From IMG/VR virus record IMGVR_UViG_3300009702_000500, positions 1 to 64,000 of that record: DNA of 64,000 nucleotides. One strand, 5' to 3'. Shown here one piece after another: positions 4,008-56,232 of the stretch. Each line of letters opens with the position of its first letter. Position 1 is the first letter of the stretch. The DNA comes from a virus. The notes below the pieces were generated by a model that was given only the letters and a program-made list of their open reading frames with translations, was not told where the DNA came from and ran no database searches. The translations under genes were made by a program, and so were the position numbers.

Positions 4008-5924
4008 ATGACTGAAAGTTGGGCTAGTTTTGGCACCGGTGAGTTTTCTGGTGATTCTGGGGCTACTAAAAGTGTAGCCGAAGATGTTTTAGATAAATTT
4101 GGAATACCTATTGGTGAACGTGGCGGCGGTAGTCTTCCAGATGTGGATATAAAACACATGGACGCTTTAAACGCTATTAGATTATCTTTATTAGATGAAC
4201 TTGGACATACTGGAACATATAGGGAGATCAGAGTTACTGCTGATGGTCATGTAGATCTCGCTCGTGTTGGTACGGGTCGAGGGGTGAGTAATATTTACTA
4301 TACTTTACAATCACAAGATTATATTACTCCTAAGAGTGGTGTTTTGGTAACTGGCGGAAAACCATTGCCGAAGAGATTTGTAGGAGATACTTACAATATT
4401 CTAGCTCATGCTGAAAGGTGGTCAGCTTCTAAATATATGATTAGTAATTGTATGAGGCCATATTTTGCTAAATATCATGTAATAACTTATGATGACCCAC
4501 ATCTTTCTTCATCATATGCTGATGGTATTTCTAACTTAGCTGATATAACCGATCCATACACACGTTTAATTGGTTATATTTATGATATTAATCCTCATAA
4601 TGATTCTGAATCAGTTACCATAAGCATTAATAAGCAAGCTTCTGTTCCTGTATTTGTTAGTGGGGAAACTCCTGATAATTCTGGAACCGGAGTTATTTTA
4701 GGTGAACTTTATAGGCCCCCGATACTACCAAATAATGAGGATGAAGAGTGTTATGGTCAGGGATTTACTGGCACACCTTCAGGTGGTATTGAGGTTTCCT
4801 TGCCACCCTCACTTAGGTTTACTTCTACTAGAGGAGTGGTATATGATAAGTTTATACGTGTGTCAGATGTTTTTGTTATAGGTATACAGTTAGATAGTTG
4901 TAGGGGAGTACCAAAGGGTCATTCTCATGCAAAGGGGGGTGTTAGTACACCAGAGAATACTGATTTATGGGTAGAAGTTAATGACCCAGATCGTAATGTT
5001 TTTAAACTTAAATCCGGAATACATTATGCCGTTGGATATGATTTAGGTACTATAAGGATACAATTTGCTGATAGAGGCGACCCTTTACTAAATCCAAAAG
5101 TGGGGGATAATACTACTGCTTTTGTAGCTAATACTTGCTTATATGGGGCTACAAATAAAACTCTTAAAGGAAGTATACTACCTACTGATCGTAACAGGGG
5201 TCTCTTAGTACAGCAAGTGTTTGCGGTAGTTGATTTGGATACTCCTTGTATAACCATACAAGATCCGGAAGGAAACGCAGAACTTGTGGGTGATTCTATA
5301 ACTTTTGATGTATCTGCTATATTCATGTATACTCCCCCAGCACCAATGGCTTATAATGGCACGGTTATAGATTTATCAGATGGTGTGGCGGATCATGATC
5401 CTACTACCACCCAGGATTTTAGTGAAACTCAAATGGAACAAGTTTTGAAAGATATGGATGGTGGTGCTGGGATGACATTAAGCTTATCTTCGCTACAAAG
5501 CCCAGATATGGTTGCTAGATTATCTGATGAATTAAAAGAGTTATTTTTGTCTGATAGGGGGGTAACTACTACTTATATATGTGGTCCAAATTGTAATCCT
5601 GAATTATTAGCTAAAGGTCCATCAGGGGGTATTATAAATGAAATAAATTATACATATTCGGATAGTGGTTCTTACACAATATCAGTAACTGAAGGAGCTA
5701 CTTTAACCAGTAATTTTCCGAATATAACTACAGGTAGCCATATAAAAATGGTTGAGGAAGTTAGTGCTGGTGGTACTGTTATTCAAGATGCTGGTAATAA
5801 TGTAATGTACAAGGTATTAGTAGATGGAATTGGAGTACGTGAAGCAATAAATGGTGCCCCAGCGGTTATAAGGACGGGGGATAGAGTTAGTGTAACAATA
5901 CATAATAATCCGGTGGAGGGATAA
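4008..5924 (+). CDS. Putative tail-tip/baseplate hub-like structural protein (638 aa)
   Basis: AGGAGG RBS; first gene after the TMP-like gene; beta-rich. Function inferred from position. Confidence 0.45.
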   Translation: MTESWASFGTGEFSGDSGATKSVAEDVLDKFGIPIGERGGGSLPDVDIKHMDALNAIRLSLLDELGHTGTYREIRVTADGHVDLARVGTGRGVSNIYYTLQSQDYITPKSGVLVTGGKPLPKRFVGDTYNILAHAERWSASKYMISNCMRPYFAKYHVITYDDPHLSSSYADGISNLADITDPYTRLIGYIYDINPHNDSESVTISINKQASVPVFVSGETPDNSGTGVILGELYRPPILPNNEDEECYGQGFTGTPSGGIEVSLPPSLRFTSTRGVVYDKFIRVSDVFVIGIQLDSCRGVPKGHSHAKGGVSTPENTDLWVEVNDPDRNVFKLKSGIHYAVGYDLGTIRIQFADRGDPLLNPKVGDNTTAFVANTCLYGATNKTLKGSILPTDRNRGLLVQQVFAVVDLDTPCITIQDPEGNAELVGDSITFDVSAIFMYTPPAPMAYNGTVIDLSDGVADHDPTTTQDFSETQMEQVLKDMDGGAGMTLSLSSLQSPDMVARLSDELKELFLSDRGVTTTYICGPNCNPELLAKGPSGGIINEINYTYSDSGSYTISVTEGATLTSNFPNITTGSHIKMVEEVSAGGTVIQDAGNNVMYKVLVDGIGVREAINGAPAVIRTGDRVSVTIHNNPVEG

Positions 5925-7522: not shown

Positions 7523-7795
7523 ATGTCTGTTTATAAAGGGCAAGTGTATAAATTAAGAGCAGGGGCACCAATGCCTATAAATAGAGGGGAGTCTATATTA
7601 CAAACATTTGGAGCTGAAGTTTATAATGTTGATTTTTTTGATTCTACTTCTAGTATAGTAGGTAGTAGTCGTTTTAGAGGACAAGGCGGTAATTTGGTTT
7701 CTGCTCAATACTCCAGACTTTCTGATAGGAGTGGTAGTCTGTTTCAAGGTAAGATTGTATATACTTCGTCTTTTGTAGATGAGGATCGGATATAA
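7523..7795 (+). CDS. Hypothetical protein (90 aa)
   Basis: GGAGG RBS; operon packing. Confidence 0.6.
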   Translation: MSVYKGQVYKLRAGAPMPINRGESILQTFGAEVYNVDFFDSTSSIVGSSRFRGQGGNLVSAQYSRLSDRSGSLFQGKIVYTSSFVDEDRI

Positions 7796-7797
7796 AA

Positions 7798-8028
7798 ATG
7801 GCTGAATTTATAGATTGTACATCATTATCAATTTCATTTAATGTTATGGGTATAGCAACAATAAGTTATACCATTGTATCAGATACTGCTGGGTTTAAGG
7901 CTTATGACACAATTGATGCAGGAGGTCAGAAGTTTCATGGTTATGTGGCTAGTATAACCCTTAACCAAATACCAGGGTCATCTGGTTGGTTTGAAAGTCA
8001 TGTAACATTAATAGCTACTACTGATTAA
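7798..8028 (+). CDS. Hypothetical small beta-rich protein (76 aa)
   Basis: GAGGA RBS; operon packing. Confidence 0.6.
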   Translation: MAEFIDCTSLSISFNVMGIATISYTIVSDTAGFKAYDTIDAGGQKFHGYVASITLNQIPGSSGWFESHVTLIATTD

Positions 8029-8040
8029 GGAGGAGTGTGT

Positions 8041-8238
8041 ATGGCATGTGGCGGTTGTAGAAGCAGAACTCAAAATAGGAATACAAAATCTTACAGTGTT
8101 ACTGGGGGATATAAATATCTAAGTGACAGACAAATTAAGGCACGACTTGAGAGATATAAGAGAATTTATTGTAAAGAATGTGAAAAAAGGTATGAATGTG
8201 ATTTTGCTTCTTATAAATCTTGTAGCAAAAGACCATAA
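8041..8238 (+). CDS. Small basic Cys-rich protein
   Basis: AAGGAGGAG RBS; CGGC and CKEC...C...C motifs. Start could be GTG 8035 or ATG 8041. Confidence 0.6.
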   Translation: MACGGCRSRTQNRNTKSYSVTGGYKYLSDRQIKARLERYKRIYCKECEKRYECDFASYKSCSKRP

Positions 8239-8287
8239 TAAACTAACCTTTTAATAGATAGAAATACTATGTTTAGGAGGAATACTA

Positions 8288-19335: not shown

Positions 19336-20913
19336 ATGGCTACTACTAATATCTACATAGACTCGTCCTTTGTTGAGCCTGACCCACATGGTTTTAGACC
19401 TCCTATTACGCATGAGTTATCTTTTGATGTTCCTGATAATATTGGTGGTAGGGATATACCTTTGGTATTGAAGTATAGTACAACTACATCTGGTGAATCT
19501 GTATGGCCTTTGGAATATGTAGTTATTCTGGGTATAGATGCTCCTGGCGAAGAAGTGTACCATGAGTATTTTAGACATGTTGGTACCGTTATCACAGATC
19601 TTACTATTTTAGCTGAATATACATCGTTACTTACTATATCTTCTGGTACCTACTCTGCCTATATGGATTACTTTAATCGTGGCCAGGCATCCTTAGCGGC
19701 ATACCCCATCTATGCAACTTTTGTGACTGGTGATTATATAGGAGCGTTTAATGCTGTTGCTCTTGGTTATAAAACATTTTTGCCGACTATTGATTGGGAC
19801 AGTATAAGAACTAATTATGTTAATTTTACCGGTGATCATGACTATTGGGGAGACCCAATAGGTTCAGTGAGTGGTACTGAAATAATACCTACCCGGTATG
19901 AAACACATTCGAATACTCTTAGTGGTATTCAAAGTAGTTATATAGATATTACTTTATCAGATTGGGTTCCAGGATTTACAGAGTGTAATGTATATTCGGT
20001 GTGGGAGAATATTAGGGATGGTAAACATTATTACTACCCAGTAGAAGTTACTACGAGGTCTGGTGGTTTAACTGGTGCAGTATCTGATGTTTTTTCTACT
20101 ACATTAGATACTAGGTATTTTGAAGTAGATCTTTATTCTGCTGGCCAGAAAGAACCTGTTATAAATATAGAAGTTTCTACTGTTCCAGGCACGAATAATA
20201 AAATAGATTTTGATGTGTGGTCAGTACATCCAGATATGGCATCCATGGCATTTGATGTTGAGTTATTGACCATGTATTTTGATAATTTTAATTTGGCTGT
20301 TGGGGAATATATGACAGCCTCTGGAACTATTTGTGTAGATGTACATGATGAAGTTTATAGTGTAGTTACTTCTGGTACATATTTTATGGTAGATGGGGTG
20401 CCTGTTTCTGGTACATTAACACCTATATCTAATGGATACACTATTTGTTATAACCCCACTGATAATTTTGCGTCTTTAGCCGGACCAACAAAATTCACGG
20501 CACATGCAGAAAATTCTAATGGAGATGTATTAACGAGAGATTATTATGTAACCTTTGGATATGTAGTAGAGTATGATAATTTTAGATTTCGTGGAATAGA
20601 TTTTGGATTGTATAATAAAATAGGTGTAAGAATGACTGCATCTAATTTAATGAATTGCCCCATAGATGATGCTGATGGTTTTTGGTTTGTGAGTAAGGAT
20701 TATGGGAATACGGATTTACGTGCCAGCATTACTGTAATACCTAGTGGTTTAATTTCAGATAAAAGAGACTTACCCACTAGTATTTATCCACAGAGCACAG
20801 CATATTTTTATGATAAAGTTTTTAGAATGGAACTAAATGTGAAGGACTATGGTGGAAATGCTATGGCACCCTTTGTTTTAGTATTCAAAGTTGAAAATTT
20901 AAATGAAGAATAA
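19336..20913 (+). CDS. Structural protein (525 aa), SG(T)-rich, with an Ig-like C-terminal region
   Basis: T/S/Y/D-rich beta composition; 9 SG dipeptides, 5 of them SGT. Confidence 0.55.
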   Translation: MATTNIYIDSSFVEPDPHGFRPPITHELSFDVPDNIGGRDIPLVLKYSTTTSGESVWPLEYVVILGIDAPGEEVYHEYFRHVGTVITDLTILAEYTSLLTISSGTYSAYMDYFNRGQASLAAYPIYATFVTGDYIGAFNAVALGYKTFLPTIDWDSIRTNYVNFTGDHDYWGDPIGSVSGTEIIPTRYETHSNTLSGIQSSYIDITLSDWVPGFTECNVYSVWENIRDGKHYYYPVEVTTRSGGLTGAVSDVFSTTLDTRYFEVDLYSAGQKEPVINIEVSTVPGTNNKIDFDVWSVHPDMASMAFDVELLTMYFDNFNLAVGEYMTASGTICVDVHDEVYSVVTSGTYFMVDGVPVSGTLTPISNGYTICYNPTDNFASLAGPTKFTAHAENSNGDVLTRDYYVTFGYVVEYDNFRFRGIDFGLYNKIGVRMTASNLMNCPIDDADGFWFVSKDYGNTDLRASITVIPSGLISDKRDLPTSIYPQSTAYFYDKVFRMELNVKDYGGNAMAPFVLVFKVENLNEE

Positions 20914-20931
20914 TGCCACATGATGTGGTAT
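20913..20931 (+). promoter_or_regulatory. Small hairpin/inverted repeat directly 5' of a strong RBS
   Basis: ATGCCACA-TGA-TGTGGTAT (8-bp stem, one G-U), followed by GAGGAGGT. Confidence 0.4.
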
Positions 20932-20949
20932 CTGAGGAGGTAAAGTTTT

Positions 20950-22485
20950 ATGACAGCTACAACTAGATGGGTAGAGTATGATGTAACTACGGGGGGTGTA
21001 GCATCTGATGGTGATAACGATGGATTGGGTACCAGGGGATATGCTCTTGCTACAGCAAGTGTGGCAGATTCTTTTAGTATAGCAGACGCTAATAATAGGT
21101 TTCATTTTTCTTTAGACGGAATTACTAATGAATATATTACTATTACTAGTGGTATTAACATGGATCCACGTTTTATAGCTAAAGATATTACTGAAAAGAT
21201 ACATAATCTTGATACTAATTCTACCGCACATCAGTTTGCTAAATGTGTGTGGGAGAATAATGCTTTTAAGTTATATTCAGGAACGTTGGGCACATCCTCT
21301 AGTGCGTCGGTGATTGGTGGTACTAATACAGCACATCTTACATTAGGGTATGGGACTAAAACAGAAGTAGGTGGTGCAGCACATTCCAACACATATAATG
21401 GTGGCTTAACTATTTCTGGCACATACAACGGTATTTTTGATGAGGTGTATAAAATAGTTATAGATAAGGAAATTCCAATACAGACCCCTAATAAGGGTGG
21501 AGCTAATGCCTACAATGGAGTTATAACGACAGGTGGTGCATATAATGATGGTACTTCAATAACATATACACTCGCTATAGATACAACAAATGGTACTACG
21601 ATGGGTGCCGGTACAAGTAATGTTCCAAAACTTACTTGGACTTCTACTGGCAATGTTGATAATAGTACCGCCGAAGGCATAGAATTATTGTATCCTGATT
21701 ATTGGTATTTTATAGGTACTCGTGGACTTATGGTTAAATTTTCTGACGCGGTGTTTAATACATGTGATCCTGCTTGGACAATTAATTGTAATGCAGTACA
21801 ATATGTAGAGGGCAGTAACACTTCAGGGCCTACGGGAACTGCTAAATATTATTGGGGTTCTGATCGTGGTGATAATGCAGCTGCTTCTTATACCACATCG
21901 GCAGTTAACTTTACACAGCTCGGAAGCAGAGGGTTATATATAAAATTCACGGGAACAAATTCAATGAATGCTGGAGATGAGTTTTATGTATTATGTAGAC
22001 CACCTCAACCAAAGGAATATTACGTAACTAATTTGAATTATGGTAATGTCACAGTTTCTACTGAATCAACAATTAAGACGGTTTTATTTGAAATTATATC
22101 TGGGGCTGTAGAGATAAGTACCATTAAGTTCGGTTTACAGAGCCATGGCTCTTTTCAACATCATACAGAAGGTAATGATGATACTTTGTTTAGGTTTGGT
22201 ACTGTTGGACCAGGTAATACTGCGGGCTCACCCCCTATTTCTGGCCGTGAATGGAGAGAAAATGTAGTTGCTAATGATTTAGCAAGTGATACTCCTCCTT
22301 CATATTTATATGCCACCAGGGAAAATCTACACGTAGTAGCTGATGCTGACAATAGTGAAACAATAGGTGGTAGCACTTACTATGGAATGGTAGCAGATCC
22401 TATATGGTTGGGAATACGTTTGGGAGCGAGTGAGGTTGGTGCAAATAGTACAATTAATTATCGTATTTTTTTTGATTACAGTTAA
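20950..22485 (+). CDS. Probable abundant structural protein (511 aa) with a sheath-insertion-like domain
   Basis: GAGGAGGT RBS; T/G-rich; FSLDG...IAKDITEKI...CVWENNAFKLYSGTLG...LTLGY; flanked by RNA hairpins on both sides. Confidence 0.55.
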   Translation: MTATTRWVEYDVTTGGVASDGDNDGLGTRGYALATASVADSFSIADANNRFHFSLDGITNEYITITSGINMDPRFIAKDITEKIHNLDTNSTAHQFAKCVWENNAFKLYSGTLGTSSSASVIGGTNTAHLTLGYGTKTEVGGAAHSNTYNGGLTISGTYNGIFDEVYKIVIDKEIPIQTPNKGGANAYNGVITTGGAYNDGTSITYTLAIDTTNGTTMGAGTSNVPKLTWTSTGNVDNSTAEGIELLYPDYWYFIGTRGLMVKFSDAVFNTCDPAWTINCNAVQYVEGSNTSGPTGTAKYYWGSDRGDNAAASYTTSAVNFTQLGSRGLYIKFTGTNSMNAGDEFYVLCRPPQPKEYYVTNLNYGNVTVSTESTIKTVLFEIISGAVEISTIKFGLQSHGSFQHHTEGNDDTLFRFGTVGPGNTAGSPPISGREWRENVVANDLASDTPPSYLYATRENLHVVADADNSETIGGSTYYGMVADPIWLGIRLGASEVGANSTINYRIFFDYS

Positions 22486-22669
22486 TCCATATGATTTTAT
22501 TGAATATATGGGGGACAGTGCACTGTGCATTGGTAAGATACCCTAACCGTCTTACCTAACCCCTTTACCTGTTAGGGAGGTAATATAGTGTATTATAGTA
22601 AAGGCAAGGATATCTATATTGTTCTATTTGGACAGCTGTGTATAGATGTTTCTTGTCTATTTTCTTTTT
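22486..22669 (+). ncRNA. Candidate structured RNA (hairpin array with complementary kissing loops)
   Basis: Longest intergenic gap in the window. Stems 22486-93/22505-12, 22532-39/22549-56, 22565-70/22578-83, 22603-18/22641-57. Loop CCCTAAC (22541-47) is the exact complement of loop GTTAGGG (22571-77). Many G-U pairs indicate + strand RNA. Confidence 0.5.
22603..22669 (+). terminator. Long imperfect hairpin with U-rich tail (intrinsic terminator/attenuator or processing stem)
   Basis: GGCAAGGATATCTATA pairs with TATAGATGTTTCTTGTC; inner stem TTGTTC/GGACAG; followed by TATTTTCTTTTT, then the GGAGG RBS. Confidence 0.5.
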
Positions 22670-22681
22670 GGAGGTTATATA

Positions 22682-22984
22682 ATGAGGAGAGGTTGGGAAG
22701 TAGAATATAAGAATGGAACAGTAGTTACTGAAGAACAATTGCCTTGGAGTAAGGTTGTTAAAAGAGATATACAAAGGCTAACTCTTAAATACGGTGGTAG
22801 AGAGTGGAATTTGTCAGGTAAACTTGCTTATTTGCAGAAGAAGCGAGGGTCTGTAGATCCTAATATTCCAGGAAGCTTTAGAATAGAATCAAGATCTATT
22901 GGGTACTATGATGCAAATTGTAAAGTTTGGTATACTGTGGATGAAGCTACAGGACAAATGAATATGAGTGTGGAGGAAATTTAG
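22682..22984 (+). CDS. Hypothetical small protein (~100 aa)
   Basis: GGAGG RBS at 22670 favours ATG 22682 over the track start 22646. Confidence 0.6.
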   Translation: MRRGWEVEYKNGTVVTEEQLPWSKVVKRDIQRLTLKYGGREWNLSGKLAYLQKKRGSVDPNIPGSFRIESRSIGYYDANCKVWYTVDEATGQMNMSVEEI

Positions 22985-56030: not shown

Positions 56031-56232
56031 AAAACATAATAAAGATTGTATAGACTGGACACCAATGGATGATGGTACTAAGACAGGGGACACCGAGTAT
56101 TGTGCCTTGAGTCTTTTGTGTAAACAGATAGGAATGAAAGGAGATTTTATTTCTTTTATAAACAATGATACTAAAACTACAGAGTTTGACTATTTTTGTA
56201 CTTGTATGTACGAGAAAAAGGAAGAGAGATAA
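56023..56232 (+). CDS. Small Cys-containing hypothetical protein
   Basis: Overlap coupling; five Cys. Confidence 0.55.
   Translation: MSKKHNKDCIDWTPMDDGTKTGDTEYCALSLLCKQIGMKGDFISFINNDTKTTEFDYFCTCMYEKKEER

Follow-up and report, generated by a model that had tools for sequence, protein, structure and literature searches.

A candidate RNA leader family with a three-way junction and complementary loops, located after a conserved virion-module gene of uncultured jumbo phages

Results

Locus and features

The window, that is the whole stretch of 64,000 nucleotides analysed here, is the first 64 kb of a 92,332-bp IMG/VR virus record with a CheckV completeness of 34%. All of its long ORFs (75/75) are on the + strand. 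A related virus record of 268,764 bp is rated complete, and the phage group of the window therefore belongs to the jumbo phages (~270 kb). Tail-module genes are present in these ~270-kb phages, and the RNA element described here lies within a tail-gene operon, between gene A (20950-22485) and gene B (ATG at 22682). Searches with Pfam and PHROGs gave almost no matches among the genes near the element, ARAGORN found no tRNA or tmRNA, and blastn against phage GenBank gave no match.

The features of the region are the following, all on the + strand.

20950..22485, +: gene A, 511 aa, conserved beta-rich virion-module protein (ORF list)
22487..22511, +: hairpin H0, confined to one lineage, with a 3' arm that shares the first G residues of P0
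22510..22563, +: three-way-junction core of 54 nt, defined by pattern matches, covariation, covariance-model matches and minimum-energy folds
22510-13 / 22560-63, +: P0, closing stem GGGG / CCCC
22514-16, +: junction strand G-A-C
22515-22526, +: palindrome ACAGTGCACTGT
22517-22 / 22526-31, +: hairpin P1 with loop 22523-25, the palindrome of the earlier note
22532-39 / 22549-56, +: hairpin P2, GGTAAGAT / GTCTTACC, with loop 22540-48; H1 of the earlier note
22541..22547, +: P2 loop CCCUAAC, the 5' kissing partner, exact 7-nt complement of 22571-77
22557-59, +: junction strand UAA
22565..22583, +: hairpin H2, TTACCT (22565-70) / AGGTAA (22578-83), with loop GUUAGGG (22571-77)
22575-80, +: Shine-Dalgarno-like GGGAGG, split equally between the H2 loop and the 3' arm
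22588..22710, +: degenerate mini-ORF of 40 aa starting with GTG, 7 nt past GGAGG (ORF list)
22602..22658, +: hairpin H3, a bulged stem of 18 bp, rich in A/U and G.U, with an apical part that varies
22659..22669, +: U-rich tail AUUUUCUUUUU directly 3' of H3, with 9 U in 11 nt
22670..22984, +: GGAGG (22670-74) and gene B (ATG at 22682), 100 aa, MRRGWEVEY...; homologs begin at the corresponding ATG

The gap between the two genes had been described as the longest in the window. It is among the three longest in the 92-kb record but not clearly the longest, since other long gaps measure 259 nt (8029-8287) and 202 nt (56031-56232). An apparent gap of 780 nt between long ORFs at 7524-8230 contains small genes, and a Cys-rich ORF of 60-odd aa beginning with MACGGCRSR shows that this region is not non-coding.

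Homologs of gene A were found in more than 100 loci in IMG/VR and the JGI metagenomes. These loci and contigs, given L-numbers, come from relatives of the window's phage, all of them uncultured. Gene A itself has no Pfam or PHROG match, and there is no detectable paralogy between gene A and the two preceding genes of ~510 aa. The AlphaFold model is poor (pLDDT 59) and a fold search gave no reliable match. The single confident local match was to a neck-and-tail-complex chain of Pseudomonas phage Pa193, a phage tail-sheath chain (probability 0.99, 136 columns, rmsd 4.7), but because of the poor model gene A is not named from it.

Folding and Rfam searches

On the + strand, positions 22483-22685 fold at -55.3 kcal/mol with z = -2.64 (2 of 200 shuffles are equally good), compared with z = -0.60 on the - strand. 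The numerous G-U pairs had earlier been taken as a sign of selection on + strand RNA, and this difference bears that out. When 22507-22599 is folded alone, the minimum-energy structure consists of exactly the closing stem, P1, P2 and H2. The same junction followed by H2 appears in single-sequence minimum-energy folds of the window and at least nine other members.

The element had not been recognised as a known family, and the Rfam 15 scan agrees. Over the whole window no model matched at the gathering score, over 22440-22720 none matched at E up to 10, and in nine relatives no match overlapped the element; the models without a match include riboswitches, ribozymes, pRNA and phage cis-elements.

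Three-way-junction core

The hairpins proposed in the earlier note fall into place in a three-way junction. H1, like H2 and H3, lies where it was described; it is the same as hairpin P2 and is conserved with compensatory changes. The 12-bp palindrome is also where it was reported but is no separate feature, being part of hairpin P1. H0 is correctly placed at 22487-22511, yet it has no conservation beyond near-identical contigs: it is identical in L010 and L069 and absent or different in all other members. The mutually exclusive pairings CCTAAC/GTTAGG and CCTTTAC/GTAAAGG could not be upheld, as they are not conserved and no covariation support is possible. The former can form because the loop of the window happens to resemble the conserved junction sequence, and the latter is confined to the window's lineage.

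Stems vary considerably between members. P1 reads UGCA-CUG-UGCA in the window and CGCC-GACG-GGCG or CACC-GGCG-GGUG elsewhere. P0 covaries from GGGG/CCCC to UUAAGG/CCUUAA in L099, AAGGAG/CUUCUU in L091 and UUAGG/CCUAG in L103. The near-invariant unpaired nucleotides are G-A-C-A, U-U|G at the joint of P1 and P2, and UAA. This conservation seems to exceed what a passive scaffold would need and hints at a partner for the junction. Two partners are available to the 5' G-run, namely the 3' C-run and the P2 loop.

Occurrence in relatives and covariation

Among related uncultured jumbo phages, 17 distinct sequences contain the core together with the hairpin following it, always a short way past the stop codon of gene A. 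Six more distant contigs, in which gene A is 59-66% identical, carry a homolog of 22507-22565 right after gene A. A pattern search found the core at exactly 54 nt in eight loci. In an alignment of eight sequences 97.5% of the cells are paired and nine pairs have changed on both sides, which none of 500 shuffles equalled.

R1, a covariance model that leaves out the pseudoknot, then detected ten more divergent copies outside its training set, with E-values of 1e-14 to 4e-5 that are rough because of short calibration. The matches are in L026, L038/L059, L046, L025, L118, L111, L091/L117, L099 and L103, all 30-100 nt past the stop of gene A. A second model (R2) found nothing more in 87 other loci (533 kb). 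In each of five virus records, among them the one of 268,764 bp, it gave a single strong copy. Weak matches elsewhere in the genomes (E 0.1-1) lack the signature and were set aside as noise.

The alignment of 18 sequences has 92.1% of its cells paired, against at most 52% for slid partners; it was fitted to nested helices and leans towards them. Both sides have changed in 24 of the 32 pairs, a count in which the loop-loop helix is included, across a modest number of independent lineages, and again no shuffle of 500 was equal. P1, P2, H2 and the loop-loop complementarity proposed in the earlier note are thus kept in relatives by compensatory changes. Judged from the sequences compared, the element is a member of a structured RNA family that is conserved in jumbo phages and previously undescribed.

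In IMG/VR, exact patterns for H3 and H1 returned an already-known relative only, or nothing, and a strict core pattern returned nothing. The sole core-pattern match in species genomes (L072) lies in a G+C-rich Nitrospinota MAG without the hairpins and was discarded as a chance match.

Loop-loop complementarity

The proposed complementarity between the loops of P2 and H2 is real and has been kept through 11 sequence versions. It extends over 6-7 nt in 17 of 18 copies. The mean is 6.6 nt for the two loops of one copy, compared with 4.3 nt for loops exchanged between copies. Nine of the versions are as follows (P2 loop / H2 loop).

CCCUAAC / GUUAGGG
CCCUUAU / AUAAGGG
CCAUGUU / AACAUGG
CCCUAAU / AUUAGGG
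CCUUAUU / AAUAAGG
CCUAUUA / UAAUAGG
CUACUU / AAGUAG
CUUAUU / AAUAAG
CUUACC / GGUAAG

The remaining two contain a U.G pair and a central mismatch, respectively. The loop-loop helix is absent from the covariance model, and its presence in the copies found with that model is therefore an independent test. Shuffling the downstream segment in nine members outside the model training gave per-sequence p values of 0.004-0.28. By this comparison, the P2/H2 loop-loop interaction can be considered real and selected. The motif GTTAGGG is not enriched in the window.

H2 and the gene that follows

Covariation is seen in the stem of H2, whose loop pairs with that of P2 across the members. GGAG(G/A) lies within the H2 loop and 3' arm in all of them, an arrangement that would sequester a Shine-Dalgarno sequence. 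A start codon follows 7-10 nt past this sequence; it is AUG, or GUG in the window, L010 and L026.

In L118, L025, L091, L099, L103 and L038/L059 an ORF of 257-647 aa begins at this start codon. The domains found in these ORFs are CapR-homology repeats, HTH, NUMOD3, and Phage_endo_I or REase_MTES_1575, and the ORF in L091 has a Mom-family domain. By their predicted domains, these ORFs are composed like free-standing homing endonucleases. CapR is itself derived from a homing endonuclease by domestication (PMC8096241).

Only a mini-ORF follows the element in the window, the L022 group, L026 and L111. In the L022 group and L026 it encodes 20-38 aa, and its conserved ends KSGV...PDF form a hairpin with a U-run. 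The same ends match both ends of a nuclease-like frame in L046, and the mini-ORF is, by this correspondence, a deletion remnant that now resembles a terminator. In L022, L023, L027, L031, L021, L052 and L026 the conservation of the mini-ORF is at the nucleotide level and not in the protein, with the frame switching across the hairpin. Its ends match KSGV... and ...YTPDF of the PD-(D/E)XK-like frame at L046:4700-4860, and these ends are complementary to each other even in the long form of L046.

The mini-ORF of the window occupies the place of the nuclease gene in relatives, crosses H3 and enters gene B out of frame. Translation from this start in L010 yields 18 aa in another frame, so there is no conserved peptide. 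A tblastn search for a nuclease-gene remnant in the gap of the window gave no significant match.

H3 and the U-tract

Folded alone, H3 reaches -22.3 kcal/mol (z = -4.6), with none of 200 shuffles equally good, and offers a duplex of ~18-23 bp. The stem sequence is kept in L010, L012, L011 and L002 and the apical ~20 nt are free to vary; H3 is the part that its own clade always keeps. Changes in the stem are few and one-sided (G-C/G.U or U.G/U-A), with pairing retained on + strand RNA only. The U-tract has the form CUAUUUUAUUU in the closest clade. Unrelated hairpin and U-run signals are found at the same place in other relatives, and no second copy of the H3 arm was found.

H3 had been called terminator-like. 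That description fits a stable hairpin followed by a U-tract, but not a G+C-rich stem with a short loop, because A-U and G.U pairs make up most of the stem, and its apical region is large. A scan with a consensus terminator did not call H3. Termination at H3 cannot be complete because essential genes follow without a visible promoter. H3 and the U-tract look like an intrinsic-terminator-like or attenuator signal, and the conservation of H3 fits a terminator, an attenuator or a 3'-stabilising role for gene A transcripts.

The element is missing from L102 (~4090-4130), where a gap of 86 nt holds a perfect hairpin, GGTAAGATAC-TAAC-GTATCTTACC, and then a U-run. The GGTAAGATAC and GTATCTTACC arms are almost identical to the P2 arms of the window, with gene A only ~53% identical. 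This hairpin may be a leftover P2 reused as terminator, or the result of convergence.

Variable slot and evolution of the element

Gene B, which has closer relatives at 88-74% identity, is the conserved right-hand border of a slot that begins after gene A. The distance between the two genes is 42-2360 nt across relatives, showing that the slot is variable. Its cargo ranges from 0 to ~2.3 kb in L002-L119. Most relatives have a Zn-ribbon gene of 67-71 aa there (MPLYDF.C..CG..., FmdB-like), and many slots also contain one of at least three kinds of homing-endonuclease-like gene. Neither kind of gene is present in the slot of the window, and a search of the 92-kb record gave no Zn-ribbon homolog. 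A frame reading PYDFIEYMGD in the 5' part of the gap was considered as a remnant of a decayed Zn-ribbon gene. This idea was rejected because the YMGD part derives from the conserved RNA core and because relatives have the core alongside an intact Zn-ribbon gene.

L010 and L069 are near-identical contigs in which the whole gap is kept at ~98% nucleotide identity (95.7% over a 185-nt BLAST alignment with L010/L069). Compared with L010, gene A is 92% identical in protein sequence, the flanking coding DNA 82-91% and the gap 97-99% at the nucleotide level. Positions 22507-22599 differ from L010 at ~5 of 93 nt; ~14 differences are expected from the divergence of the flanks. Patches of 94-99% identity to L010 on a background of 75-90% are also seen at 20493-20692, 20793-20942 and 22420-22740, which indicates mosaic recombination between close lineages, with one patch covering the element. 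The high identity of the gap to L010 may be such a recombination patch rather than selection.

L012, L011 and L002, with gene A ~79% identical, have H3, the U-tract and an H2-like hairpin but neither H0 nor P0-P2. Since P0-P2 has been lost there, the junction is dispensable for the phage. On a quick version of the gene A tree the element requires at least 11 gains or losses over 74 rows. The near-identical flanks of L102 and L103 enclose a block that differs, from ~36 nt before the stop of gene A to just before the ribosome-binding site of gene B, and that holds the element and a nuclease gene in L103. The leader thus travels or is lost with the cargo of the slot. In phages, nuclease genes are known from recombination boundaries (PMC10448857).

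Discussion

The earlier note suggested a riboswitch or attenuator-like element tuning read-through into a 30-kb block. The structured RNA on the + strand stands, but not the switch for the 30-kb structural block: H2 carries a Shine-Dalgarno sequence and a start, and homing-endonuclease-like genes follow in relatives, which makes the element firstly a translational leader. On balance, and with modest confidence, we favour the interpretation that 22507-22599 is a cis-acting leader that sequesters a ribosome-binding site at a slot for mobile nuclease genes and is followed by a terminator or attenuator. The three-way junction (P0, P1 and P2) would present the 7-nt P2 loop to the 7-nt loop of H2, and the loop-loop helix together with the H2 stem would base-pair the entire Shine-Dalgarno of the first gene after gene A. 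In relatives, this first gene is the free-standing homing-endonuclease-like gene of the variable slot, and the leader might keep its translation low or conditional on a long late transcript. In the window the nuclease gene is gone, leaving the intact leader, the degenerate GTG mini-ORF and H3 with its U-tract. H3 would end or attenuate gene A transcripts, or stabilise their 3' end, at a point 3 nt ahead of the gene B ribosome-binding site, and translation of the mini-ORF could be coupled to this by melting H3. The sequence comparison shows the structure with its covariation, constant position and neighbouring genes; we infer the repression of translation, the termination at H3 and any coupling between them. 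Because the nuclease gene is missing and the mini-ORF is not frame-conserved, the leader in the window may have no present target.

There is a parallel in T-even phages, where homing endonuclease genes are controlled by hairpins that sequester the ribosome-binding site and by terminators early in the gene, such as those in mobE and segF (PMC2988022). In both cases the setting is a phage late operon, the Shine-Dalgarno of a free-standing nuclease gene is paired by a structure immediately upstream of that gene, terminator hairpins are found within or soon after the beginning of the reading frame, and expression of the selfish gene is presumably low. A homing endonuclease gene directly follows the element in the six relatives with a long ORF (L118, L025, L091, L099, L103 and L038/L059), compared with a mini-ORF only in the window, the L022 group, L026 and L111. 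Where T-even phages have simple local hairpins, the leaders described here form a conserved family built on a three-way junction plus a loop-loop helix of 7 bp. The leader is also common to nuclease genes of different families, persists after the loss of the nuclease gene and has no sequence relation to the T-even leaders, and no internal late promoter that would free the site was found.

The junction might instead be a sensor, either a new riboswitch class or a factor site, that gates both nuclease translation and read-through into the structural genes, which we consider unlikely. Making and breaking the 7-bp kissing helix would then gate translation of the nuclease, and the short ORF across the terminator would gate read-through. 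Put as a riboswitch-like or protein-responsive attenuator, the junction would be an aptamer for a small molecule or for a phage or host protein, and binding would set the capture of H2 by the P2 loop, hence translation, the formation of H3 and read-through to gene B and the structural block. Junction nucleotides are invariant and stems free to vary, as in aptamers, and the G-run that pairs with the 3' C-run or the P2 loop would allow alternative states. The window group, the L022 group and L026 all have a short ORF with a sequestered Shine-Dalgarno that crosses a terminator hairpin, and a short ORF across a terminator is the layout of translation-dependent attenuation. The probability of such an attenuator is nevertheless low, because there is no ligand-related context and what lies downstream is not one pathway but selfish genes of several nuclease or DNA-binding families, or no gene. 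Furthermore, the alternative pairings suggested earlier are not conserved, no Rfam riboswitch model matches even at E up to 10, and the junction is deleted in close relatives with no other visible change.

The conserved fold with support from covariation (24/32 pairs, 92%) is a property shared with riboswitches. The purine riboswitch (L2-L3) and guanidine-II (kissing hairpins) likewise have a conserved junction, variable stems and a loop-loop contact, with a Shine-Dalgarno and a terminator downstream. The element differs from them in that it matches no riboswitch model, has no metabolic gene association, and has a kissing partner that is outside the junction and is itself the ribosome-binding site.

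The element in the window could also be the leader of a decayed homing-endonuclease cassette without present function, where H3 alone matters as the terminator or 3' hairpin of gene A and the rest is not yet eroded or has recently been recombined in. The patchy distribution on the gene A tree, the whole cassette by which near-identical L102 and L103 differ and the loss of P0-P2 in the closest clade are consistent with this. The same applies to the window itself, which has no nuclease gene and a GTG mini-ORF that is in a different frame in L010, and whose high-identity patches with L010 occur elsewhere too. A relic of this kind is nonetheless quite improbable, given that five helices are all intact in the window and that positions 22507-22599 have fewer differences from L010 than expected. 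For P1, P2, H2 and the loop pair, the window's lineage also has compensatory versions peculiar to it, meaning that the structure was selected along its branch.

The phi29 pRNA is a free RNA of 120-174 nt in small phi29-like phages that binds the portal, and its loops of 4 nt pair between molecules and covary. The element likewise has a three-way junction, and covariation preserves the complementarity of its two loops, with pairing within and between molecules indistinguishable. The element might accordingly be imagined as a free small RNA of ~160 nt that has a promoter just upstream, ends at H3 and acts as a pRNA-like multimer or in trans. The terminator-like hairpin at the end of the window copy suits this, as do sigma-70-like boxes just 5' in some relatives (for example TTGACA-17 nt-TATAAT in L025). 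However, these boxes are at inconstant distance and absent in many members, and a promoter scan with the sigma-70 consensus, which may not be the type used by these phages, was no better than shuffles. The second hairpin of the element is a translation start on an mRNA, and six relatives use H2 as the ribosome-binding site for a real gene of 257-647 aa, with no terminator between. The loops are 6-7 nt long, neither pRNA nor any other Rfam model matches, and the operon holds tail genes of ~270-kb phages that are not phi29-like. The proposal of an RNA that multimerises as phi29 pRNA does is hence not supported, and a free small RNA of any kind is very improbable.

Just as little probability is given to a self-cleaving ribozyme or a processing site that separates the message of gene A from the downstream message, including the variant in which H3 is an RNase III-type site like those between T7 genes. 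Several small ribozyme classes have compact junctions, invariant unpaired nucleotides and tertiary loop contacts and occur in phage or mobile-element contexts, all of which are seen here, and the duplex of H3 would be long enough for processing. On the other hand, hammerhead, twister, twister-sister, pistol, hatchet and HDV-like models gave no match even at E up to 10, and to our knowledge the junction strands resemble no known catalytic core.

For the favoured interpretation, a leader followed by a terminator or attenuator, the nearest likeness to H3 is found in the intrinsic terminators and attenuators of phage late operons, with a stable hairpin and then a U-run after a conserved structural gene. 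H3 differs from intrinsic terminators in its long stem (18 bp with a bulge), which is G-C-poor, in its large loop and in escaping the terminator scan. It also has essential genes within 3 nt, implying that termination is only partial.

The element adds a structured RNA family to phage biology, in phages with almost no annotated genes. A hot spot for homing endonucleases can carry a shared and elaborate RNA leader and not ad hoc hairpins, and this bears on how phages tolerate selfish nucleases within essential late operons. With its invariant nucleotides, the junction is a candidate binding site for a ligand or a protein, and a programmable kissing pair of 7 bp that hides a ribosome-binding site is a compact natural design.

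A box, AAACTAACCT...TATA(A/G)TAG, is recurrent in the intergenic DNA of these phages. It is found in the window at 8236-8262 and just after gene A in L019, L004, L077, L016, L086 and L040. In relatives without the three-way junction the AAACTAACCT box heads the leader of the nuclease gene and is followed by a hairpin and a ribosome-binding site. With CUAACC and an H2-like hairpin, it is similar to the element's 3' half, and it may represent either a promoter of the phage or the leader in a shortened form.
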